From: an uncultured delta proteobacterium
Lineage (GTDB): Bacteria; Myxococcota_A; Polyangia; Palsa-1104
Length of the DNA: 64,000 nucleotides
Direction of reading: 5' to 3'
Assembly (NCBI GenBank): GCA_963785725.1
Contig: CAWAWS010000003.1
Location: forward strand, 224,001-288,000
In this document: in pieces, positions 6,047 to 64,000 of the stretch
Numbering within the stretch: the stretch's first letter is position 1
How the letters are laid out: each line of letters opens with the position of its first letter
Translations under genes and position numbers: made by a program
The notes under the pieces: generated by a model
The model's input: the letters and a program-made list of their open reading frames with translations, nothing else
What the model was told of the DNA's origin: nothing
Database searches by the model: none

Positions 6047-7603
6047 CTACGGCGTCGAACGCGCGAGAACGATCCAGGCCAGCGAGCCCAAGAGCGCGAT
6101 CACGGCCGCCAACGCCATGATGAGCCAGCGGCGCTCGAGCGGCGGCAGCGACGGGCGCGGCGCGTCATGCGGCGGCGAGACAGCGTGCACATCGGGCGCG
6201 GCGTGATGGCCGACGACCGTCGACGCGGCGTGGTAGGCGGCCGGCAGCTGCGCCGGCTGCACGTCGACGATCGTCTCCTCGGCATCATCGCCCGCGCCCA
6301 ACGCCGGATAGGTCGGCGCCGGCACCGACGCGCGCGTCGCTTCGCCGGCGAAGGCGCGCGCCTCTTCGCCCGTCAAGACCGGCACCGACGCCCGCGTCTC
6401 CTCGTCCGCCAGCGCCGTCTGCGTCGGCAGAGCCGGCGACGACGGCGACGACCGCGTCTTCGGCTCCGCCGACGACGGCGGCGACGACGGCGTCTTCTGC
6501 GTCTTCGGCTCTGACGTCAGCGCCCGCGACGACGGCGACGACGGTTGCGTCCGCGGCGCGGGCGTGGCCGGCGGCGCCGGCGTCCCGCCCTTCATTGCGC
6601 CGTCAGGCGAGGGCGAGGGACGGGGAGTCTTTAGCGGCGCCGGCATCGCGCGCCCGACCGGTCCCAGCTCCTGCAGAAACCGCCGCAGCGCCACCGCGTC
6701 GCCGCTCTGTTGTCGCGTCAGCTCGGCCAACGCCGCCCACAACGCGTCACAATCGGCGAAGCGCTGCTCGGGCCACGGCGCCAACATGCGCAAGACGAGC
6801 GCGTCCACCTCCGGCGGAATGCCGTCGACGCGCGTGCTCGGCGGCGCGACGTTGCCCTCGCGGATGAGCGACATCGTCTCGATCTCGGTCTTGCCGCGAT
6901 AGAGCCGATCGAGCGTCATGAGCTCGTAAAAGACGATGCCGAGCGCGAAGATGTCGCTGCGGCCGTCGAGCTCGCGACCTTCGCACTGCTCGGGCGACAA
7001 ATAGCTGAGCTTGCCTTTGAGCGAGCCGACGCTGGTGCGCGTCTGATCTTGGCGCAGCTTGTCGGTCACTTTGGCGATGCCGAAGTCGAGCAGCTTCACG
7101 CCGCCGAGCGCCGTCACCATGATGTTCGACGGGCTGACGTCGCGATGGACGATGCCGAGCGGCTGCCCGTCGTCGTCGGTGAGCGCGTGCGCATAGGCGA
7201 GCGCGCTGGCCACTTGGCTGACGATGTACGCGGCGACGCCGAGCGGCAGCCGCAGCTGCCGCTGCTTGCAGGCTTTGACGAGCGCGCTCAGGTCGCAGCC
7301 TTCGACGAGCTCCATCGCCAGGTAATATTCGCCGTCGACCTCGCCGAACTCGTGCACCTGCACGATGCCGGGATGACGCAGCCGCGCCGACAAGCGCGCC
7401 TCGGTCGCCAACATGCGCGCGAAGCTCGGATGGTACGAATGCTCGCGCAAGATGCGCTTGATGACGATCTCGCGCTCGAAGCCCTTGGGCCCGTCGACGA
7501 CGGCGCGCGTCACCACCGCCATGCCGCCCGCGCCCAGCTCCTCGAGCAGACGATAGCGCCCGAACTTCGACTCCTGCGGATTCGACTCCCGCCCATGGAC
7601 CAT
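6047..7603 (-). CDS. Ser/Thr protein kinase with Pro/Ser-rich tail and C-terminal TM
   Basis: LGAGGMAVV, IVHRDVSPSN, LLDFGIAK, GKLSYLSPE. Confidence 0.92.
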   Translation of the reverse strand: MVHGRESNPQESKFGRYRLLEELGAGGMAVVTRAVVDGPKGFEREIVIKRILREHSYHPSFARMLATEARLSARLRHPGIVQVHEFGEVDGEYYLAMELVEGCDLSALVKACKQRQLRLPLGVAAYIVSQVASALAYAHALTDDDGQPLGIVHRDVSPSNIMVTALGGVKLLDFGIAKVTDKLRQDQTRTSVGSLKGKLSYLSPEQCEGRELDGRSDIFALGIVFYELMTLDRLYRGKTEIETMSLIREGNVAPPSTRVDGIPPEVDALVLRMLAPWPEQRFADCDALWAALAELTRQQSGDAVALRRFLQELGPVGRAMPAPLKTPRPSPSPDGAMKGGTPAPPATPAPRTQPSSPSSRALTSEPKTQKTPSSPPSSAEPKTRSSPSSPALPTQTALADEETRASVPVLTGEEARAFAGEATRASVPAPTYPALGAGDDAEETIVDVQPAQLPAAYHAASTVVGHHAAPDVHAVSPPHDAPRPSLPPLERRWLIMALAAVIALLGSLAWIVLARSTP

Positions 7604-44067: not shown

Positions 44068-45373
44068 CGCAGTGAGGCGCATCGTGGACAAGCTTCGCAT
44101 TCTCGCGCTGCACGGCTATCACGGCAGCGCCGCTATCTTGCAGAGCCAGCTGCGTCCGCTGGCCGAGGCGTCGAGCCCGCTGGCGGACTTCGTCTATGTC
44201 GACGCCCCGTCGCTGGCGAACGGCGACTTCGGTTGGTGGCACGCCAGCGGCAAGGAGGGTTCCATCCGCTACCAGGGTTGGTCGCGAACGCGCGATTGGC
44301 TGAAGCAGCTTTGCGCTACGAAAGGTCCGTTCGACGGCGTCTTCGGCTTCAGCCAAGGCGCGGCGCTGACCGCGCTCCTCGTAGGACTGTGCGCGGCCGA
44401 GCCGCGGCGTCCCGAGGCGCAGCTGCACTTCGACTTCGCCATGCTGGTCGGCGGCTTCGCCAGCGGCGACGCGCGTCATGCGCCGCTCTACGAAGCCCTG
44501 CGCGGCCACGAGCTGCCGACGTTGCACCTCATCGGCCGCTCGGATTCGATCGTCTCGAGCACGCGGTCGCACGCGTTGGCGCGGCGCTTCGAATCGCCGC
44601 TGATTCTCGAGCATGACGGCGGCCACGTCATCGCGGCCACGCCGCCGATTCGCCGCGACGTGCACGCATTCCTCGAGCGAATGGCGCAGCGGCGGCGATT
44701 GCGCCGTGAAGGACGAGCCGGTCGAACGGCGACCGCAGTCGCGCAGGCGGCGCGGCGTCCGACGTCAGCGTCGCCATCGCAATCATCCCCGCCGTGGCAA
44801 TCGTCGCCCCACTATTCGCAGTCGCCGTCCTATTCGTCTTCGCCGTCGCATTCGCCGTCACGTTTGTCCTCGCCGTCGCCATCGCCGTCGTCCTATTCAT
44901 CCTCGCCATCGCAAGGGCCGTCACGTTTGTCCTCGCCGTCGCCATCGTCACCGTCCTATTCGTCCTCGCGCTCACAATCGGGATCCATCGCGCTGCCCGC
45001 CGGGCCGCTCGACGTGCCGTTGTGGAGCGGGCGCGCGCATCCGGCCTTGCGCATCCACTGGCCGACCGGCGCGCGCGCCGCGTCTTTGCCGGCGCTGCTC
45101 GTCTTCCGCGGCGGCGCCTACGCCACCGATCACGGCAGCGGGGAAGGCACCGCCGAGTGGGCTGCGCAGCACGGCCTCATCGGCGTCGAAGTCGAATACG
45201 CCACGCGCGCCACGCGGCAGTCATACCCCGCCGGGTATGCCGACGCGGCGCGCGCCATGCGGCTCGTCCGCAAGCACGCCGCCGAATGGGGCATCGATCC
45301 CGCGCGCGTCGGCGTCGTCGGCTATTCCGCCGGCGGCCACCTGGCGTCGCTGTTGAGCACGCAGCCGGCCTTA

Positions 45374-46706
45374 GGGCCCGCGAATGGTCGAGTCGATCGA
45401 GTTGGGCGAAAGAAGATCGCGCTCGGGGATCGACAAGGACCGTCTGGCGTGATTTATCTTCGGAGTGGACGCCGAAGAGTTGGTTCGTCAGAAGTGGCGA
45501 CTGCTGAATCCGACGATGGACGAACGCGCTCGTCGACTGTGGGCCGGCGCTGAGGCGGGCGCCATCGGCTACGGAGGTGTGGCCGCCGTGGCGCGGGCGA
45601 CGGGGATGGCAATCAGCACCGTGCGCAAGGGTCGCGACGAGGCACGTGCCGGCGCGCGTCCCGAAGACGTAGTCAAGGTTCGGCGCAGTAGTGGGAAGCG
45701 ACCGTTCGAGGTCGCGCATCCGACGGTATGGCCCGCGCTCGAGAGACTCATCGATCCAGTCACGCGGGGCGATCCGGAGTCGCCGCTCCGGTGGACGAGC
45801 AAAAGCACGCAAGTGCTGTCGGCCGAACTGTTCGCTCGGCACGTGATTCGGGTCAGCGACCGGACCGTGGCCAAGTTGCTCCGCAGCCACGGATACAGCC
45901 TTCAGGCGCCGAACAAAGCGGTCGAGGGAGCGCAGCACCCGGACCGCAACGCGCAGTTCGAGCACATCAACGCCAAGGCCCAGGCCTGCGTCGAGCGTGG
46001 CGTGCCGGTGATCTCCGTCGACACGAAGAAGAAAGAGCTGGTCGGCAATTTCAAGAATGGCGGCCGCGAATGGCAGCTCAAAGGCGAGCCGGAGTTGGTG
46101 GACGTCCACGACTTTCCGTCCGACGCGGTGGGCAAGGCTATCCCGTATGGGGTCTACGACGTGGCCGCCAACGACGGTTTCGTGAGCGTCGGCGTCAATC
46201 ACGACACCCCGGTCTTCGCGGTAACTTCTATCGAAGCCTGGTGGAGGCTGCTGGGTCAGAAACGTTATCCGAAGGCGCGAGAGATTTTCATCACCGCCGA
46301 TGCGGGCGGCAGCAACAGCTATCGATCACACGTGTGGAAACAGCAGCTTCAGCGGCTGGCAGACAAGCTCGGGCTGGCTGTCCACGTGAGTCATTTTCCG
46401 CCGGGTACCAGCAAGTGGAACAAGGTCGAGCACCGACTGTTTTCGTTCATATCGATCAACTGGCGAGGGCGACCGCTGCGGTCGTACGAGACGATCATCA
46501 ATCTGATCGGCAACACGACCAACGTCGGTGGGCTGGTCGTGCGCGCGCGCCTCGATCGTCGCAACTATCCTATCGGCAAGAAGGTCTCAGCGAAGGAGCT
46601 TCGCGAGCTGAAGATCGACAGACACGACTTCCACGGCGATTGGAACTACGTGATCAAACCGCGCAACGCGCAAGGCTGATCGGCCGACTTGTGCATTCGC
46701 GGGCCC
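45374..46706 (+). mobile_element. ISAzo13-family insertion sequence, 1333 bp
   Basis: Terminal IRs GGGCCCGCGAATG / CATTCGCGGGCCC (13 bp perfect, imperfect to about 27 bp); TTA direct repeats at 45371-45373 and 46707-46709. Confidence 0.92.
45465..46679 (+). CDS. ISAzo13-family (Rhodopirellula-type DDE) transposase
   Basis: RGDPESPLRWTSKS, HPDRNAQFEHIN, ISVDTKKKELVGNFKNGG, ITADAGGSN, PPGTSKWNKVEHRLFS, FHGDWNY. Confidence 0.95.
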   Translation: MDAEELVRQKWRLLNPTMDERARRLWAGAEAGAIGYGGVAAVARATGMAISTVRKGRDEARAGARPEDVVKVRRSSGKRPFEVAHPTVWPALERLIDPVTRGDPESPLRWTSKSTQVLSAELFARHVIRVSDRTVAKLLRSHGYSLQAPNKAVEGAQHPDRNAQFEHINAKAQACVERGVPVISVDTKKKELVGNFKNGGREWQLKGEPELVDVHDFPSDAVGKAIPYGVYDVAANDGFVSVGVNHDTPVFAVTSIEAWWRLLGQKRYPKAREIFITADAGGSNSYRSHVWKQQLQRLADKLGLAVHVSHFPPGTSKWNKVEHRLFSFISINWRGRPLRSYETIINLIGNTTNVGGLVVRARLDRRNYPIGKKVSAKELRELKIDRHDFHGDWNYVIKPRNAQG

Positions 46707-47281
46707 TTACCCGGCGATGGCGCCGACGATCTGGCCGCGCAGGTCTCGGCGCGCCCCGACCTCGTCGTGCTCGCTTATCCGCTCATTTCGTTCGTCGATC
46801 ATTATCGGCGCGGCGCCTTCGTCGGCTCGGTCGAAAACTTCTTCGGTCGCAGCGACATCAGCGATGACGAACGCCGCCAATTCTCCAACGAGCTGCACGT
46901 CACCGCCACGCACCCGCCCGTCTTCGTTTGGACGACCGAGGACGACGCGCTCGTGCCGTATACCCATTCGCAGCGATTCGTCGCGGCTTGCCGGCGCGCC
47001 AACGTGCCGGTCACCTATCGGCTGTACGCGCACGGGCCGCACGGCCTCGGACTGGCGCTCGACGAGCCCGGCGATGTGGCCGGCTGGACTACAAAGCTCG
47101 CCGAATGGCTAAAGCAGCAATGGAATCTGCAGCCATAACCCCACGCCCTCGCGAATAGAGCGTAAGCGCGCAATCAGGTCGGCGGATTGCAGTCATTGCG
47201 CCGTGACGTAAGCCGCGGAGTGCGTCGTAAAGAGGGAACATTGTCGAAGCCTTAATGGTAATGAATGAATTGGAGGCTTCG

Positions 47282-48226: not shown

Positions 48227-48456
48227 GCACACCCGCCTGCACGCGGTCCGCATGGCCGCACCGCGATCGCGACCGAGCCGTCAGCCGACGCCGCGCGCGG
48301 CCACGCGTAAATCAGCTATTCGCCCGCGCCACCGACGAGAACCGCGTAGCCCCGTCATCCACAGCCGGCGGCGACGCCAACTGCGCCAGCCACTCATCTG
48401 CGCGATTGCTGCGTGCGTCTTCGCACACTTGGCGCGGCGGCGACCTTCGCCACGGC

Positions 48457-48472
48457 TGGCCGCGCGCTTGCA
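48457..48472 (+). promoter_or_regulatory. Putative sigma54 (-24/-12) promoter
   Basis: TGGCCGCGCGCTTGCA = GG-N10-GC; predicted TSS just upstream of SD GGAGGA of the 48496 gene. Confidence 0.55.
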
Positions 48473-48495
48473 ATATCGGCGGCGCGGAGGATCCC

Positions 48496-48822
48496 GTGAA
48501 GACCTTATCGACGCTCATGCTCGGCCTCGCCATCGTCGCCGCCCCGCTCGCCGCCCACGCCGACGGCCAATACCAAACCATCGACTCCGTCAATCGCCGC
48601 GGCGACACCGCCATCGCCATCAGCGGCGTGCTCGTCGGCGACTCGACCTCGACGCCCAGCTACATCAGCAACAGCAGCTCTGTCAGCCTCGTCGATGCCT
48701 GCGAACGCGGCGCGCTCCTCATGATGGCGCATCCGGGCCGCTACTTGCTCAGCATGTATGCCACCAACAACGGCTGCACGCTCACGCCCGCGCCGGCGCC
48801 CACGCCCGCCAAGACGAACTGA
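48496..48822 (+). CDS. Small secreted protein (paralogue A)
   Basis: SD GGAGGA, signal peptide ending AHA, motif ACERGALLMMAHPGRYLL...GCTL. Confidence 0.75.
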   Translation: MKTLSTLMLGLAIVAAPLAAHADGQYQTIDSVNRRGDTAIAISGVLVGDSTSTPSYISNSSSVSLVDACERGALLMMAHPGRYLLSMYATNNGCTLTPAPAPTPAKTN

Positions 48823-48833
48823 GGAGAATGCCC

Positions 48834-49157
48834 ATGCTGCGTACCCTTTGTGTGCTCGTGCTCGTCGGTATCGGCTCCATCGTCGAGGCCGACACGCTGC
48901 CGGCGGCGGTCACGCTCTCGACGGTCGATCAGTTCGACCGCCAATTCAACGATATGACGTTCGTCGGAATCGTCAGTGGGCAGTCGACGGCGAGCACCTT
49001 CAATGTCAGCGCGTACGACAGCACGGGTCTGACCGGCAACACCTGCGAGCGTGCCGCGCTCTTGATGATGAGCCGGCCGGGCCGATTCCAGCTGCTCATC
49101 TCGCCCGATGACACGGACTACGGCGTTCATTGCCGTTTGATTCGGTTGACCCAATGA
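48834..49157 (+). CDS. Small secreted protein (paralogue B)
   Basis: SD GAGGAG, signal peptide, motif TCERAALLMMSRPGRFQL...HCRL. Confidence 0.75.
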   Translation: MLRTLCVLVLVGIGSIVEADTLPAAVTLSTVDQFDRQFNDMTFVGIVSGQSTASTFNVSAYDSTGLTGNTCERAALLMMSRPGRFQLLISPDDTDYGVHCRLIRLTQ

Positions 49158-50806
49158 TTCGGCGCGCGCTCGTCATCGCGGCGCTCGCCACCGCCGGCTG
49201 CGGCGATCCGCCGCTCGTCAAGGTGCAACCCACGCCTGTCGACGCCGACGGCGACGGCTACAACGCCAGCGTCGACTGCAATGACCACGATCCGACCGTG
49301 TGGTCGCTGCAGCCGTTCTATGTCGACGGCGACGGCGACGGCTTCGGCAGCGGCGCGCCGAGCACGCTGTGCGCCGGCGCCACGCCGCCCAAAGGCTACG
49401 CCGTCAAGAACGGCGACTGCGCGCCCGCCGACGCCACGCGCTGGCAGACGCTCGACTACAGCGCGGTCGACGCCGACGGCGACCACTTCTTCGTCGCCAA
49501 ATTCGGGCAGCTGTGCAGCGGCGCCGAGCTGCCGGCCGGCTACTCCGCCAGCGCCGTCGTCTCGCCCGACTGCGACGACACGAACCCAAACGTGTGGACG
49601 CAAGGCAGCTTCTATCGCGACGCCGACGGCGACGGCTACACGCTGTCGCCACCGGTGAGCCTCTGCGCGGGCGCCGCGCCGCCCGCCGGCTACGCCGCCA
49701 CGTTCGCCGGCCCCGACTGCGACGACACCAACCCGGCCATCTTCAAGCCCTGGTCGGTCTACGTCGACGGTGACGGCGACGGCTTCGGCACCGGCGCGCT
49801 CGTCGTCGTGTGCCAGGGCGCGAGCTTCCCGAGCGGCTACTCCGCGCTCGACACCGACTGCAACGACGCCAACGCCGGCGTCTGGGCCTCGCTCAACTAC
49901 GGCTTCCGCGACGCCGACGGCGACAGCTACACCATCGCCACCGCGGGCACGTTGTGCACCAACGGCAGCTTGCCCGCCGGCTACCTCGCGTCCGCCCACG
50001 GCAGCGACTGCAACGACGCCGACCCCACGGTCTGGCAGAGCTACAACGCCTGGACCGACAGCGATGGCGACGGCTATGGCGGCGGCAGCGAGCAGCAGCT
50101 GTGCGCCGGCGCGCAGCTGCCGAGCGGCTACGTCACGCGCGGCGGCGACTGCGCGCCCACCGACGCCACGCGCTGGCAGACGCTCGCCTACAGCTATCGC
50201 GACGCCGACGGCGACGGCTACACGGTCGCGCAGAGCGGCAGCTTGTGCAGCGGCGCGGCCCTCCCCGCCGGCTACGCGACGAGCGCCGGCAAAGGCGCCG
50301 ACTGCAACGACGCCGACCCGAGCGTCTTCGTCGGCCTCACGGCGTACGTCGACAGCGACGGGGACGGCGTCGGCAGCGGCAGCGCGGCCACGTTCTGCAC
50401 CAGCGGCGCCACGCCCGCCGGCTACGCGCTCACCGGCAGCGACTGCGCGCCCAGCGACGCCACCCGCTGGCAAGAGCTGCCCTACAGCTTCGTCGACAAC
50501 GACGGCGACGGCTACACCGTCGGCATGAGCGGCCAAGTCTGCGCCGGCGCCGCCTTGCCCAAGCCTTACGCGGCCGCGGCCAACGGCAACGACTGCAACG
50601 ACGCCGACCCGAGCGTCTACCGTTACGTCGTGCTCTACACCGACAGCGACGGCGACGGCGTCGGCGTCATGCCGCGGCAAATCCCCTGCTTGGGCGCGAC
50701 CATCCCCGCCGGCTGGTCCATCTACGGCGACGACGTCAACGACAACGACCCGACGCAGCAGCTCGACGACGGCGACATCGACGACCTCCTCGCCATCCTC
50801 TTCTAA
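49154..50806 (+). CDS. Lipoprotein with about 11 DxDGDG[YF]...C...GY...DCND repeats (MopE-like putative metal-binding motif)
   Basis: TAGC lipobox, repeats of about 50 aa; ATGA overlap with the upstream gene. Confidence 0.85.
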   Translation: MIRRALVIAALATAGCGDPPLVKVQPTPVDADGDGYNASVDCNDHDPTVWSLQPFYVDGDGDGFGSGAPSTLCAGATPPKGYAVKNGDCAPADATRWQTLDYSAVDADGDHFFVAKFGQLCSGAELPAGYSASAVVSPDCDDTNPNVWTQGSFYRDADGDGYTLSPPVSLCAGAAPPAGYAATFAGPDCDDTNPAIFKPWSVYVDGDGDGFGTGALVVVCQGASFPSGYSALDTDCNDANAGVWASLNYGFRDADGDSYTIATAGTLCTNGSLPAGYLASAHGSDCNDADPTVWQSYNAWTDSDGDGYGGGSEQQLCAGAQLPSGYVTRGGDCAPTDATRWQTLAYSYRDADGDGYTVAQSGSLCSGAALPAGYATSAGKGADCNDADPSVFVGLTAYVDSDGDGVGSGSAATFCTSGATPAGYALTGSDCAPSDATRWQELPYSFVDNDGDGYTVGMSGQVCAGAALPKPYAAAANGNDCNDADPSVYRYVVLYTDSDGDGVGVMPRQIPCLGATIPAGWSIYGDDVNDNDPTQQLDDGDIDDLLAILF

Positions 50807-55073: not shown

Positions 55074-56588
55074 TCAGCGACGGACGAGGCGGGCGAACAG
55101 CGCGCGCGGCGGGACCTCGGCGACACCGGCGAAGCGCGACTCCGCCGTCTCGACGATCGTGAAGTCGGCGCCGAAGAGCGGCTCGAGGTCGGCGACGTCG
55201 AGCGGCTGCGTGCCCCAGCGCGTGCCCTCTTCCGTCGCGTGCTGTTTGAGCAGCAGCTGGCCGCCCGCGACCACACGACGCGCCACTTCCGCCGCGTAGT
55301 GCGGCCACTGCGCCCGCGGCAGCGCGTGCAGACAGCCGCGATCGACGACGACGTCGAATTGCCCCCACAGCCGACTGGCGTTGATGTCGTCGAGCAGCCA
55401 GGCGATGGGCAGCGACTGCGCGCGCCGCTTGGCCAGCTGCAGCGCCGTCGCCGAGACGTCGCTGGCGACGACCTCGAAGCCGTGCTGCGCCGCGAAGATG
55501 GCGGTCGTGCCCGGGCCGGTGCCGAGGTCGAGCAGGCGGCGCGCGCCGTGCTGCGCCGCGCGCGTCAACGCCGCTGCCAAATCATCGTCGAGCGCTTCGG
55601 TGAACCAGGGCTGACGCTCGAGCGGCAGCGACGCATATTGCCGCTCCCATTGGTCGACGACATCGACGCGCTCCGGCGCCGCGCTCGACCACACCAGCTC
55701 GACGACCTTGGCGATCTCGCTCGCCGCGTGCGCCGCGCCGAAAATCGGCGTGCGCGCGTGCGGCGCCGTCGCCACTTCGACGCCGAAGCGCGGCTGCACG
55801 ACGAAGAAGCCGTCTTCGCGCAGGAGCGCCAGGTTGCGCTGCACGCTCGGCGCGCGATAGAGCGCGTCGTTCATCGAGGGCGCGAGGATGACCGGCGCAC
55901 GCGTGCTCACGACCGTCGCCGCCACGAGATCGTCGGTCGCGCCGCCGGCGATGCGCGCCAACGTCGCCGCGCTCGCGGGATAGACGACGACGAGCTCGGC
56001 CCACTGCGACAGCCGAATATGCGGCGCCGGCTGCGCCGCGGCTTCGTCGCTCGCGGCCCAAAAGCTCGACAGCACCGGCCGATGCGTAATCGCCGCCAAG
56101 CTCTCGGCGGTGACGAACTTGTGCGCCGACTCGGTCATGATGACGGCGACCTCGAACCCGCGCGCGATGAGCAGCCGCGCCAACGCCGGGACGTCGACGG
56201 CCGCGACGGCGCCGCTGACGGCGAGGACGACGCGCCCGCGCGGCTCGACGACGCTGGCGCGACGCGCGGTCGCGGCGGCCGCGGCGTTGACGAGCGCGCC
56301 GGCGGCGACGAGCACGTTGACGACGTCGACGAGCACCTCGTTCTCGACCGCGGCGTCGACGGCGCGCACGCGCTCGAGCAGCTGCGCCGGCGAATGCGGC
56401 GCCGCGAAAATATCGAGCACCAGCCGCACCAGGTCGGCCGAGCCATCGGTGAACGCCCGCGCGACACCGTCGCTGCCGATGACCGTGAGCGTGTCACGGC
56501 GATCGACGAGCACGGCGCCGTTGCTGCGAATCCAAGCAGTAACCAAATCGGCGGAAGCGGCTGACCCGACCGGGCCAGTGGTGCTCAT
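55074..56588 (-). CDS. RRE-like + HFCD (LanD/EpiD-type) flavoprotein + class I SAM methyltransferase fusion
   Basis: N-terminal beta3-alpha3-like segment ending LVAAGALV; AVSGAVAA, MTESAHKFV, PHI, PASAAT, APSMN (HFCD); LLDLGTGPG, SDVS, FDVVVDRGCLH (MTase). Confidence 0.82.
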   Translation of the reverse strand: MSTTGPVGSAASADLVTAWIRSNGAVLVDRRDTLTVIGSDGVARAFTDGSADLVRLVLDIFAAPHSPAQLLERVRAVDAAVENEVLVDVVNVLVAAGALVNAAAAATARRASVVEPRGRVVLAVSGAVAAVDVPALARLLIARGFEVAVIMTESAHKFVTAESLAAITHRPVLSSFWAASDEAAAQPAPHIRLSQWAELVVVYPASAATLARIAGGATDDLVAATVVSTRAPVILAPSMNDALYRAPSVQRNLALLREDGFFVVQPRFGVEVATAPHARTPIFGAAHAASEIAKVVELVWSSAAPERVDVVDQWERQYASLPLERQPWFTEALDDDLAAALTRAAQHGARRLLDLGTGPGTTAIFAAQHGFEVVASDVSATALQLAKRRAQSLPIAWLLDDINASRLWGQFDVVVDRGCLHALPRAQWPHYAAEVARRVVAGGQLLLKQHATEEGTRWGTQPLDVADLEPLFGADFTIVETAESRFAGVAEVPPRALFARLVRR

Positions 56589-56872
56589 CAGGCTAATACT
56601 TCGAAGTCGCAGCCGCTGGGGCAATCGGCCTGCGAGCAGGCGAAGGTCGGGCACGTCTTGCCCGAGCCGTTGGTGGCGAAGCAGGTGCCGGCCAAGGCTT
56701 GGTCGCCCATATCGTCAATGACGGGGCAGGTGCCGGCGAGATCGGCGGTCGTCGTGGGCGAGCCGTCGTTGCTGCTCGTCTTCATGCCGCCGCCACACGA
56801 GAGAAAGCCGGCCATCGCCAATGGAATCGACTTGAAGATCAGCTTGCGCGGGAAAGCATAAGAGCGCTTCAA
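56588..56872 (-). CDS. Small Cys-rich peptide/lipoprotein, candidate RiPP precursor (94 aa)
   Basis: TTG start after GGGGG; MKRSYAFPRKLIFKSIPLAMAGFLSC, two LAGTC repeats, CPTFACSQADCPSGC; its TGA overlaps the ATG of the fusion enzyme. Confidence 0.65.
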   Translation of the reverse strand: MKRSYAFPRKLIFKSIPLAMAGFLSCGGGMKTSSNDGSPTTTADLAGTCPVIDDMGDQALAGTCFATNGSGKTCPTFACSQADCPSGCDFEVLA

Positions 56873-62366: not shown

Positions 62367-64000
62367 TTATGGGCAGAACGTGACCAAGAACTGCGTATCC
62401 GACGGGCAAGCGCGCAGGCCGTTGGCGTCGTCGTAAGAATAAGCATACGCGCTCGGGCACATCGAATGAACGGCCGCGACATAGCTCGTATGCGTGACCG
62501 AGCGCGGATCGGCGGTATTCCGGCAAGCGTCGGCGGTCATGCAGCCGTTGGCCACCGTGCATTGACCGGTCGAGGGATCGATCGGCGTCGGGCAGCACAT
62601 ATGCAATGCCGGATCGACGCTCTCGGATAAGCCCACGCCCCACGGCGCCGGATAGTTGAGCTTCTTGCACGGCGAAATGCAGCCGATGACGTTGCCGGCG
62701 CTATCGCGGACGCGCTCGTCTTCGGCGCTGTATTGCGGGAACGCGCCGCCCTCGGACAAGTTGTCGCCGCTCGGGCAGCCGTTGACGGACAAGGCCGAGC
62801 AGTCGGTGACGAGGCAGCCGTTCTGACCGGCGCCGTCGCCGACCGGCGTCACTTTGAACGGCAACGTATAGCCGTCGACTTGGCTGATGTTGTAGAACGT
62901 CGCCGCGCTGCCGCCGACGGCCGAATAGGTGACCTCGAACTTGGAGTCGATCGGCGGCTGGCAGCCGTTGGCCGGACAGGGAACGCCGCCGCCTTGACCG
63001 TTGTCGCCGATGGAGCAGTTGTGGCCAGTGCCGTCGCAGCCGAGCTTGGGCCAGAAACGCACGGCCGAGACGCCGGCGGCGGGAATGTTGTAGTCGTGCG
63101 ACGCGCCTTGGCCGAGCTCGATATTCTGCGCGTCGGTGACGGCGGTGTCGTGCGCGATCCAAATGTTCTGGCTGCAGTTGTTGGCGATACGCAGTCGCGT
63201 CGGTAAGGAGCCGACCGTGCCGCCGCCGCCGCCACCCGATGTGCCGCCGCCGCCGCCCGAGCCGCTCGTCGTGCCGCCCATCGAGCAGACCGCGCCCGTG
63301 TTGTTCTTGCACTGCGTATAAATGACTTGGCTCGGGTCATTGAAGCAGGAGCCGTCGGTCGGGCAGCAGTCATAACCGGTGGGGCAGTTGCATGCCGAGA
63401 GCTGCGAGCCGCTGCATTGACCGGTGGTCGTCGTGCCGCCGACTTTGCACGTCGCACCCGTGTTGTTGTTGCACTGCGTATAGACGACTTGGCTCGTGTC
63501 ATTGAAGCAAGAGCCGTCGGTCGGACAGCAATAATAGCCGTTGGGACAATTGCAGGCCGCGACTTCACTGCCGGTGCAGGCCGCGCCGTTGACGGTGCCG
63601 GTCGTCGTCGTGCCACCACCACCGCCGCCGGAGGTCGTGCTCGACGAACCCATCAAGCAGGTGGCGCTGGGATTGTTCGTACACTGTGTGTAAATGACTT
63701 GGCTCGTGTCATTGAAGCAGGAGCCGTCGGTCGGACAACAATAGTAGCCGTTGGGACAATTACAGGCGGACAACTGACTGCCGCTGCATTGCGCGGTCCC
63801 GGTCGTCGCGCCCATCTTGCAAGTGGCGCCCTGATTGTTCGTACATTGCGTGTAGATGACTTGGCTCGTGTCGTTGAAGCAGGAGCCGTCGGTCGGACAG
63901 CAATAATAACCGTTGGGACAGTTGCAGGCGGAGAGCTCGCTCCCGGAACAGGCGGCGCCGTTGACCGCGAGGCTGGCGAGCGCGGCAGGTTGTCCACTCG
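62367..64000 (-). CDS. Thaumatin-family protein with N-terminal Cys-rich repeats (5' end beyond the window)
   Basis: IANNCSQNIW, RFWPKLGC, FYNISQVDGYTLP, CISPCKK, CPSAYAYSYDD, FLVTFCP; at least four CxGSxxxACNCPxGYxCCPTDGSCFND repeats; frame open to the window edge. Confidence 0.85.
   Translation of the reverse strand, partial: SGQPAALASLAVNGAACSGSELSACNCPNGYYCCPTDGSCFNDTSQVIYTQCTNNQGATCKMGATTGTAQCSGSQLSACNCPNGYYCCPTDGSCFNDTSQVIYTQCTNNPSATCLMGSSSTTSGGGGGGTTTTGTVNGAACTGSEVAACNCPNGYYCCPTDGSCFNDTSQVVYTQCNNNTGATCKVGGTTTTGQCSGSQLSACNCPTGYDCCPTDGSCFNDPSQVIYTQCKNNTGAVCSMGGTTSGSGGGGGTSGGGGGGTVGSLPTRLRIANNCSQNIWIAHDTAVTDAQNIELGQGASHDYNIPAAGVSAVRFWPKLGCDGTGHNCSIGDNGQGGGVPCPANGCQPPIDSKFEVTYSAVGGSAATFYNISQVDGYTLPFKVTPVGDGAGQNGCLVTDCSALSVNGCPSGDNLSEGGAFPQYSAEDERVRDSAGNVIGCISPCKKLNYPAPWGVGLSESVDPALHMCCPTPIDPSTGQCTVANGCMTADACRNTADPRSVTHTSYVAAVHSMCPSAYAYSYDDANGLRACPSDTQFLVTFCP

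Follow-up and report, generated by a model that had tools for sequence, protein, structure and literature searches.

Here we analyse a 64,000-nt stretch of genomic DNA from an uncultured delta proteobacterium (contig CAWAWS010000003.1, positions 224,001 to 288,000; hereafter the window), in which a small gene for a Cys-rich peptide lies directly upstream of a gene for a three-domain fusion enzyme, both on the reverse strand. Read conventionally, the peptide open reading frame (ORF; 56872-56588, −) starts with TTG and encodes 94 residues ending in CDFEVLA. Its coordinates and translation agree with a preliminary description of this DNA, which had noted two LAGTC repeats (residues 45-49 and 60-64) and seven Cys residues (positions 26, 49, 64, 74, 79, 84, and 88). 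The apparent stop codon, TGA at 56590-56588, directly abuts a second TGA (56587-56585). As argued below, the first TGA (56588..56590, −) is very likely read as selenocysteine (Sec, U) and would supply the last residue, with the second TGA (56585..56587, −) as the true stop; the precursor gene (56585..56872, −) then comprises 95 codons, encoding a leader, a lipobox-type Cys, an acidic linker, six more Cys, and the C-terminus V-L-A-U. The leader/signal region (residues 1-25; 56798..56872, −), in which the family consensus LxxPAxLAVT appears as YAFPRKL, is predicted to serve both as export signal and as binding site for a recognition element (RRE) of the kind found in pathways to peptides that are made on the ribosome and modified after translation (RiPPs). 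Cys26 (56795..56797, −), in the lipobox-type context FLS-C-G, is the sole invariant Cys and the predicted lipidation site. A candidate bacterial Sec insertion sequence (SECIS; 56561..56578, −), with a 7-bp stem and a GGUC loop that begins 16 nt past the UGA, lies beyond the precursor stop and within the 5′ end of the enzyme ORF.

The enzyme gene (55074..56588, −; 504 residues) was delineated from its ORF and a Pfam scan, which together with structure comparison corroborates the fusion of an RRE, a Cys decarboxylase of the flavin-containing, homo-oligomeric type (HFCD), and a methyltransferase proposed earlier. The overlap of the peptide's TGA with the enzyme's ATG, which had also been pointed out, is present but is a by-product of the sequence TGATGA. 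The start codon of the enzyme is uncertain because residues 1-10 have a mean pLDDT of 47 in the structural model, and the actual start could lie further downstream. The Pfam scan of the enzyme detected no radical SAM domain; no dehydratase was found among the 16 window ORFs scanned, in line with the preliminary description, which had seen none adjacent.

The N-terminal domain (residues ~14-102; 56283..56549, −) had been suspected to be PqqD/RRE-like. A Pfam scan of residues 1-112 returned no match, and a profile of the domain searched against PDB sequences returned noise only; within the family, weak profile matches to PqqD and Lant_dehydr_N occurred in 7 and 9 of 81 members, respectively. The AlphaFold model (pLDDT 84.6) contains three central strands and three helices, and its best structural matches were MccB (VIA Z 10.9, rmsd 2.8, 80 aligned), TigE (10.2), and PbtF (9.8), followed by BmdC, MibB, TbiB1, and ThcOx, all RRE-bearing RiPP proteins. 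Foldseek recovered the same set with TbiB1 at the top, albeit with no E-value below 0.001, and the ESM Atlas features, all below 0.9 (PqqD 0.84, MftB 0.85), serve as a lead only. On the predicted structure, the domain has an RRE fold.

The central domain (residues 119-296; 55701..56234, −) matches Flavoprotein PF02441 with an E-value of 2e-27. An ungapped match of residues 190-268 to EpiD chain positions 67-145 places H190 and N240 onto His67 and Asn117, the catalytic residues of EpiD according to section 2.1 of PMC8549060; H190 is kept in 81/81 homologues and N240 in 79/81. The clamp, GxEVA rather than LACG, has invariant E271 and A273, and its MrsD counterpart in the alignment is FEIAT; an EVA-type clamp occurs in 107 of 111 loci, and ACG anywhere in the region in two. 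The domain thus has the His and PxMN motifs (here PSMN) and lacks both ACG and a CoaB domain, as the preliminary description had read it. By sequence, the best PDB matches are TvaF and SpaF, with which Foldseek ranks CoaBC and HAL3 level. CoaC and CoaBC share the fold and provide the best NCBIfam matches (TIGR00521, 142 bits; TIGR02113, 99 bits); however, these scores fall below the cut-offs of 219.7 and 261.4, and a separate CoaBC with LACG is encoded on contig C16 of the same genome. By its sequence motifs, the domain is LanD-like and not CoaC, and a role on phosphopantothenoyl-cysteine, raised earlier as the competing function, is not favoured given the separate CoaBC, the missing LACG clamp, and the scores below the CoaC cut-offs.

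The C-terminal domain (residues ~314-504; 55077..55649, −) is a TPMT-like class I S-adenosylmethionine (SAM) methyltransferase with W314, LDLGTGPG, and DRGCLH, the last containing H421, which is invariant across the family. The SAM methyltransferase match covers residues ~324-478 and the TPMT score of 28.1 bits exceeds the cut-off of 26, in agreement with the earlier assignment. The nearest structures are YtkW (9w6x), Rv0560c (7bgg), and Ecm18 (4nec); TPMT-type methyltransferases (PF05724) share with this domain the fold, an N-terminal W..PW, and the motif D-[RS]-G-x-[FL]-H. They differ in that the domain is here fused to a RiPP enzyme and that its predicted acceptor is a peptide-bound eneselenolate. 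In the portion of the literature consulted, TPMT is described as methylating anionic selenium substrates (PMC10844679).

A search for the three-domain architecture, which the preliminary description had suggested, uncovered a family. Here the architecture is counted as flavoprotein and methyltransferase in a single ORF, and loci are the DNA fetched around enzyme matches. Both domains were present in 108 of the 120 matches listed, and 111 of 160 fetched loci carried them within one ORF. Named records come from Polyangiaceae, Kofleriaceae, Nannocystaceae, Myxococcaceae, and Sandaracinaceae, including cultured Nannocystis and Enhygromyxa strains such as Nannocystis exedens DSM 71 (L046) and Enhygromyxa salina SWB007 (L022); the system is widespread in Myxococcota-type genomes and stranger than had been proposed. 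No third conserved gene was found among the neighbours of the 111 loci: the commonest (kinases 17, HisZ-like 14, PurA 11, NIF3 10) follow lineages, and no protease or dehydratase recurs among the neighbours scanned.

The pairing of peptide and enzyme, suggested earlier from the window, holds across the family. Alignment of the upstream small ORFs revealed a conserved leader, and a precursor was found at 77/111 loci by a leader hidden Markov model (HMM) and an RNA model combined, or at 56/74 of the loci with at least 1 kb on each side. The leader HMM, seeded from 37 of the family's leaders and so partly circular, placed 76 matches no more than 1 kb from the enzyme, in 192 kb of DNA, and two farther out, in 686 kb, both just past 1 kb. 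The precursors are conserved only in the leader LxxPAxLAVT, with its invariant Pro, and in one lipobox-type Cys (P8 and C26 are invariant in family alignment A4). The remainder is acidic, 18-127 residues long, and contains 0-12 Cys. Neither the LAGTC repeats nor the Cys-richness stressed in the preliminary description is a family trait, 19 of 92 precursors having no Cys past the lipobox-type one. The internal Cys count is even in 91/92 precursors, the odd case looking like a misplaced lipobox call, and these residues probably form disulfides after export. Under a simple rule, a basic n-region, a hydrophobic h-region, and an [AGS]-Cys lipobox were recognized in 92/93 precursors, from which an exported lipoprotein, lipidated at Cys26, is predicted.

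Several loci (L013, L014, L015, L025, L040, L065, L075, L113, and L122) contain tandem arrays of two or three precursors, each with its own TGA-stop and hairpin. At L014 and L015, the next precursor begins at the ATG inside TGATGA, so that the SECIS also encodes its N-terminus. L014, L015, L025, and L113 adjoin what we take to be a ribosomal protein operon. At L009, L020, and L045 a gene that we presume to be macro-domain-like directly follows the enzyme gene, and at L009 and L045 it stands between enzyme and precursor.

Because the precursor ends resembled EpiD substrates minus the last residue, we examined the DNA past each peptide. In all 81 distinct precursors (86 matches less five duplicates), the peptide is followed by TGA and the next codon is again a stop (TGA in 54, TAG in 26, TAA in one). 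For comparison, a second stop followed 0/103 enzyme genes of the family and 53 of the 2406 TGA-ending long genes of the genome. Relative to the enzyme, 79 precursors could be placed: 51 upstream on the same strand, 13 upstream on the opposite one, 12 downstream, and three downstream on the opposite strand. Among these 79, 27 read TGATAG or TGATAA, with no ATG inside. Given these varied orientations and the 27 cases without ATG, translational coupling cannot explain the TGA-stop.

The pattern was also followed in a held-out set of 25 enzyme-bearing genomes whose enzyme genes had shown no neighbouring precursor. A search for the DNA pattern TGA-stop-GGT was too loose, and a covariance model was used instead. 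It gave 26 matches (E ≤ 0.01) in 14 of the 25 genomes; all 26 begin with TGA-stop. A contig end truncates one of them; each of the other 25 terminates a precursor-type ORF, in two cases with no leader to be seen. The leader profile gave 25 rows, of which 16 have TGA-stop, two do not, one is cut off, and six are generic lipoproteins. Altogether, 19/25 held-out genomes have a Sec-type precursor, with up to five each, and one (G299) has a Cys-type precursor. In a further family sample, in which several loci were repeated from earlier, a precursor with TGA-stop and hairpin was found at 18/20 full-length loci. The in-frame UGA is thus conserved across the precursor homologues, in the 81 distinct precursors as in the held-out sets.

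The 7-bp hairpin recurs downstream of this UGA, with a loop that is mostly GGUC and starts 16-20 nt past it. In an alignment of 78 hairpins (two near-duplicates omitted), 91.2% of cells are base-paired, and both sides are altered in 83; the covariation score is 0.50, compared to 0.21 for shuffled alignments (0/500), a comparison that relatedness may inflate, and to no more than 0.15 when the partners are slid. Bacterial SECIS elements are described in the parts of PMC13188914 consulted as having a loop of 3-9 nt with G first, a stem of 4-16 bp, a distance of 16-37 nt from the UGA, and a minimum free energy of -7.5 kcal/mol or lower, and the window hairpin (-11.8 kcal/mol) conforms to all four constraints. 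Under a strict rule, the hairpin occurs in 70/80 family copies and after 87 of 184,649 TGAs of the genome; two of these 87 have a second stop, and only that of the window lies in a plausible gene. The tally under a lax rule (80/80) was not used as a test. The RNA model matched in 5/5 enzyme-positive genomes (three near training copies) and in 2/42 enzyme-negative genomes, neither match being a precursor. Matches at window position 6118, at L091:1717, at L282-L284, and weaker ones in the genome itself were rejected as precursors. At L100:2937, a hairpin is present and a clear leader is missing.

The genome itself encodes selA, selB, tRNA-Sec, and selD, all scoring over their cut-offs. Its scans yielded one further selenoprotein candidate besides the precursor. 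An FdhA selenoprotein, sought as a positive control, was not found in the genome, and an AhpD-like gene served in its place: it scores 88.9 bits against TIGR01926 (cut-off 81.8), has an in-frame TGA at CxxU, and has a GGUC hairpin 17 nt past that TGA. AhpD-like proteins are among the CxxU selenoprotein families listed in PMC13188914. Gene callers would truncate this gene (L189:1217-1800; G000:C5:206959) at its TGA. Across the family, selA, examined in 50 of 80 genome loci, was found in 46/50 enzyme-bearing genomes and any Sec component in 49/50; three of the four selA-negative genomes have selB or tRNA-Sec. In an even sample of 301 genomes of the phylum, all nine with an enzyme match have selA, which occurs in 190/301 overall, and in family f3 the four of 23 genomes with the enzyme all fall inside the seven with selA; the tendency of enzyme carriers toward large genomes bears on these counts.

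Taken together, the TGA-stop, the covarying hairpin, and the sel genes give us high confidence that Sec is inserted at the precursor TGA, and the window peptide very likely ends in V-L-A-Sec. The preliminary description had taken the substrate to be Cys, with the caveat that the peptide ends in CDFEVLA and that trimming or another substrate would be needed; the substrate is very likely not a Cys bared by trimming but the C-terminal Sec, and the caveat very likely dissolves because the apparent stop is a Sec codon. Two other ideas, that the HFCD acts on the lipobox Cys following cleavage and that a PEARL enzyme adds Cys in a tRNA-dependent reaction, were dropped as unnecessary once the TGA-stop had been found.

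The residues before the predicted Sec agree in many precursors with the substrate rule of the LanD-type enzyme EpiD. EpiD accepts AA1-AA2-Cys with AA1 being V, I, L, M, F, Y, or W and AA2 being A, S, V, T, C, I, or L (PMC8549060, section 2.1). L-A-U of the window peptide obeys this rule, as do 59/93 precursors, or 71/93 if Gly is allowed at AA2; the background among internal dipeptides is 243/3342 (7%).

A sister clade offers a comparison in sulfur. Around 25 shorter homologues lack the methyltransferase, and 4/5 methyltransferase-less loci encode a precursor with the same leader that ends in GxGCC, with the hairpin absent and no lipobox after the leader; the pairing of Cys and Sec rests on the leader and the terminal position, not on a whole-length alignment. 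In a quick HFCD tree with a CoaBC outgroup, the methyltransferase-less enzymes form one clade (SH-aLRT 99) nested in the full-length family, which suggests that the Cys-ending, methyltransferase-less system was derived from the Sec system. Since the methyltransferase is missing exactly where the terminal residue is Cys, we tie it to selenium. By analogy with the holomycin HFCD, the sister product could be an ene-dithiol or ene-disulfide. The sister loci are L174:3447-4576 (G299), L286, L287, and L291 (proteins P0111, P0112, and P0123-P0147), and their precursors have an AxA-type signal end and an internal GCG motif ahead of the GxGCC C-terminus.

We propose that SelB and the hairpin would cause the TGA to be decoded as Sec and that the next codon would end translation, giving ...V-L-A-U-COOH. 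In the cytoplasm, the RRE, whose fold is taken from the model, would hold the N-terminal LxxPxxL leader. Following the EpiD mechanism, the flavin-dependent HFCD would then oxidize the selenol to a selenoaldehyde, with loss of CO2 yielding a 2-aminovinyl selenol; by this analogy, oxidative decarboxylation of Sec appears likely. In what is the weakest step, the eneselenolate would be methylated by the TPMT-like domain to give a methylseleno-vinyl amide; a methyl cap is proposed rather than a ring because there is no dehydro residue to close an aminovinyl-cysteine (AviCys) ring. The product would be exported and lipidated at Cys26, its remaining Cys paired as disulfides, and one enzyme would serve one to about five precursors, some encoded far off. 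Decarboxylation followed by methyl capping, as set out in the preliminary description, still appears to be the best chemistry, with its Cys replaced by Sec. For the whole path, that is, leader-guided oxidative decarboxylation of the C-terminal Sec followed by Se-methylation on an exported lipoprotein, our confidence is moderate.

Sec might also be inserted and decarboxylated without a stable Se-methyl cap, with the methyl group going elsewhere (the N-terminus or a disulfide), the eneselenolate pairing with a Cys, or the enamide hydrolysing to set free methylselenol, in which case the peptide would be a selenium carrier. We regard this as unlikely, although the nearest methyltransferase structures include Ecm18 (4nec), which turns a disulfide into a thioacetal, and Rv0560c, which methylates N and O; TPMT forms methaneselenol, as described in the part of PMC10844679 consulted; and enamides and eneselenols are reactive on general chemical grounds. 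The 19 precursors without Cys past the lipobox offer no disulfide target, and a selenium acceptor is favoured by the fact that the enzymes without the methyltransferase are precisely those paired with a terminal Cys. An improbable variant has Sec inserted without any vinyl product, giving either a Se-methylselenocysteine end, with the flavin domain only binding or protecting it, or a selenocysteamine amide through CoaC-like decarboxylation and reduction. That Foldseek places CoaBC and HAL3 on a par with SpaF and TvaF would accommodate this, but the catalytic His and Asn are retained, and the CoaC clamp's reducing Cys is missing, with the EVA-type clamp in its place at nearly all loci. EpiD is moreover inactive on S-alkylated peptides as reported in PMC8549060, so that methylation first would leave the conserved active site pointless.

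That TGA is a plain stop, a protease trimming the peptide to an internal Cys that is then decarboxylated and S-methylated, along the lines of the preliminary description, is now highly improbable. Many precursors do have Cys 2-7 residues from the end, and 12/93 end in Cys before the TGA; yet neither the invariant TGA-stop nor the covarying hairpin is then accounted for, the same 19 precursors lack such a Cys, Cys counts are even, and no protease recurs among the neighbours. Equally hard to credit is a dehydratase supplied from elsewhere, with the eneselenol closing an aminovinyl-selenocysteine ring, the selenium analogue of AviCys: LanB- and LanC-like proteins are encoded on other contigs, but a recurrent dehydratase is missing around the 111 loci, the region near the C-terminus has no conserved Ser/Thr position, and the methyltransferase would be left without a role. 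The LanB/LanC-like genes lie at G000:C47:159155-162520 and C26:86330-87958, the LanB match on C47 being fragmented and containing one in-frame TGA. Least credible of all is a regulatory role for the double stop and hairpin (a terminator or translational coupling), the enzyme being a metabolic, CoaC-like paralogue with no connection to the peptide. The overlap of the ATG in TGATGA with the enzyme start in the window could be cited for it, but the first codon is always TGA while the second varies, the element trails precursors in all orientations and far from the enzyme too, a U-rich tail follows 0/80 hairpins, an LACG-bearing CoaBC is encoded separately in the genome, and the N-terminal domain is an RRE.

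Several observations weigh against decarboxylation and capping of a terminal Sec. The window hairpin is not unusually stable (z of -0.31 over 45 nt and -1.32 over 25 nt), and 34/93 precursors miss the EpiD rule, such as a clade ending in G-S-S/G. In the quick tree, loss of the methyltransferase with the switch from Sec to Cys is a single event, and two of the four Cys-type loci are near-identical. Among the held-out leader matches that are complete, 16/18 have TGA-stop and the leader-like ORFs at L256 and L274 do not; at these loci (G356 and G357), ORFs of 180 and 341 residues with a family-like leader and no hairpin are perhaps non-substrate relatives. No precursor was found in the held-out genomes G207, G304, G319, G339, and G360, with up to 150 candidates scored per genome. 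In G329 (L029), an intact precursor with TGA-TAG and hairpin is present and selA, selB, and tRNA-Sec were not found, perhaps owing to incomplete assembly or recent loss, and the co-occurrence counts include related genomes, which are not independent. The nearest methyltransferase structures are less than 35% identical, the methyl acceptor being inferred. Finally, the literature found reports no HFCD acting on Sec, and both Sec insertion and the chemistry are read from sequence.

Among known systems, the LanD/HFCD enzymes (EpiD, 1g63; MrsD, 1p3y; TvaF, 6jls; SpaF, 7cfu; CypD, NF033753) are the closest in the HFCD fold and the His/Asn pair; MrsD shares the E-[IV]-A clamp, and EpiD, for 59/93 precursors, the AA1-AA2 preference ahead of a terminal chalcogen residue. 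The present system differs in its fused RRE and methyltransferase, its predicted Sec substrate, its lipoprotein-like precursor, and the lack of a dehydratase, cyclase, or ring, and the CypD model scores only 32 bits (cut-off 215). By its gene content it is predicted to be LanD-like in its working but, since it has no dehydratase, is not a member of the AviCys class. The selenobacteriocin SbtA and its maturase SbtM (TIGR04081) similarly pair a Sec-containing RiPP precursor with a neighbouring enzyme. As described in PMC13188914, SbtA carries two Sec and an SGUG motif in its interior, and its maturase is a radical SAM enzyme, whereas the precursors described here have a single predicted terminal Sec and are paired with a flavoenzyme and a methyltransferase. 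TIGR04081 gave no match among the eight in-frame precursors scanned against NCBIfam, an out-of-frame L015 reference being ignored. In KCU-star (NF033934) and SaoC (NF040734), a stop codon directly follows Sec. These families carry Sec at or near the C-terminus within a CU motif (PMC13188914), and decoding of UGA-stop therefore has precedent; they differ in having a Cys-Sec pair, and the table in that source lists no lipobox, leader, or modifying enzyme for them. Neither model matched among the precursors scanned.

In the parts consulted of the comparison literature (PMC13188914, PMC8549060, PMC11350588, PMC13326102, and PMC10844679), the family is not in the 119-family Table 1 of a 2026 review (PMC13188914), and the families of Haft and Tolstoy 2025, as tabulated there, do not match. 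Neither the enzyme nor the eight in-frame precursors are covered by a model in NCBIfam release 20.0, and a full-text literature search, with most subscription papers outside its reach, returned no paper on the system. The family is easily missed because the peptide looks complete with TGA as its stop, and nothing lies downstream to align in Cys/Sec homology searches.

Elsewhere in the window, what we take to be a transposase-like ORF (45465-46679, +) seemingly splits a hydrolase gene (44072-47138). Two tandem paralogous ORFs (48406-49157, +; 138 and 111 residues) look secreted, share a CERxALLMM motif, and have no Pfam match. A lipoprotein-like ORF (49130-50806, +) has Cys/Asp-rich DADGDG repeats and a weak match to PF11617 (MopE), and a thaumatin-domain protein (62367-63815, −) contains repeated CNCPxGYYCCPTDGSC units.

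In known selenoproteins, Sec is mostly a catalytic redox residue. If our reading is true, Sec would here be raw material for post-translational modification, the HFCD would be the first, as far as the literature found goes, to act on Sec, and the product would carry an organoselenium end group for which we found no report. From a biotechnological perspective, an enzyme that tolerates precursor cores of 18-127 residues could install a vinyl-selenide handle on proteins. On balance, we lean slightly towards a new class of RiPPs. Its precursors, hypervariable surface lipoproteins of myxobacteria, would receive a C-terminal Sec on the ribosome, specified with a SECIS located past the stop, and the enzyme would consume this Sec as its substrate and leave a methylseleno-vinyl amide; a sulfur-only sister system would have lost the methyltransferase. 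A hypervariable, lipid-anchored surface protein whose selenium cap is small and hydrophobic might, speculatively, act in signalling, recognition, or selenium handling, and the system may help explain why the Sec machinery is retained in some large-genome myxobacteria.

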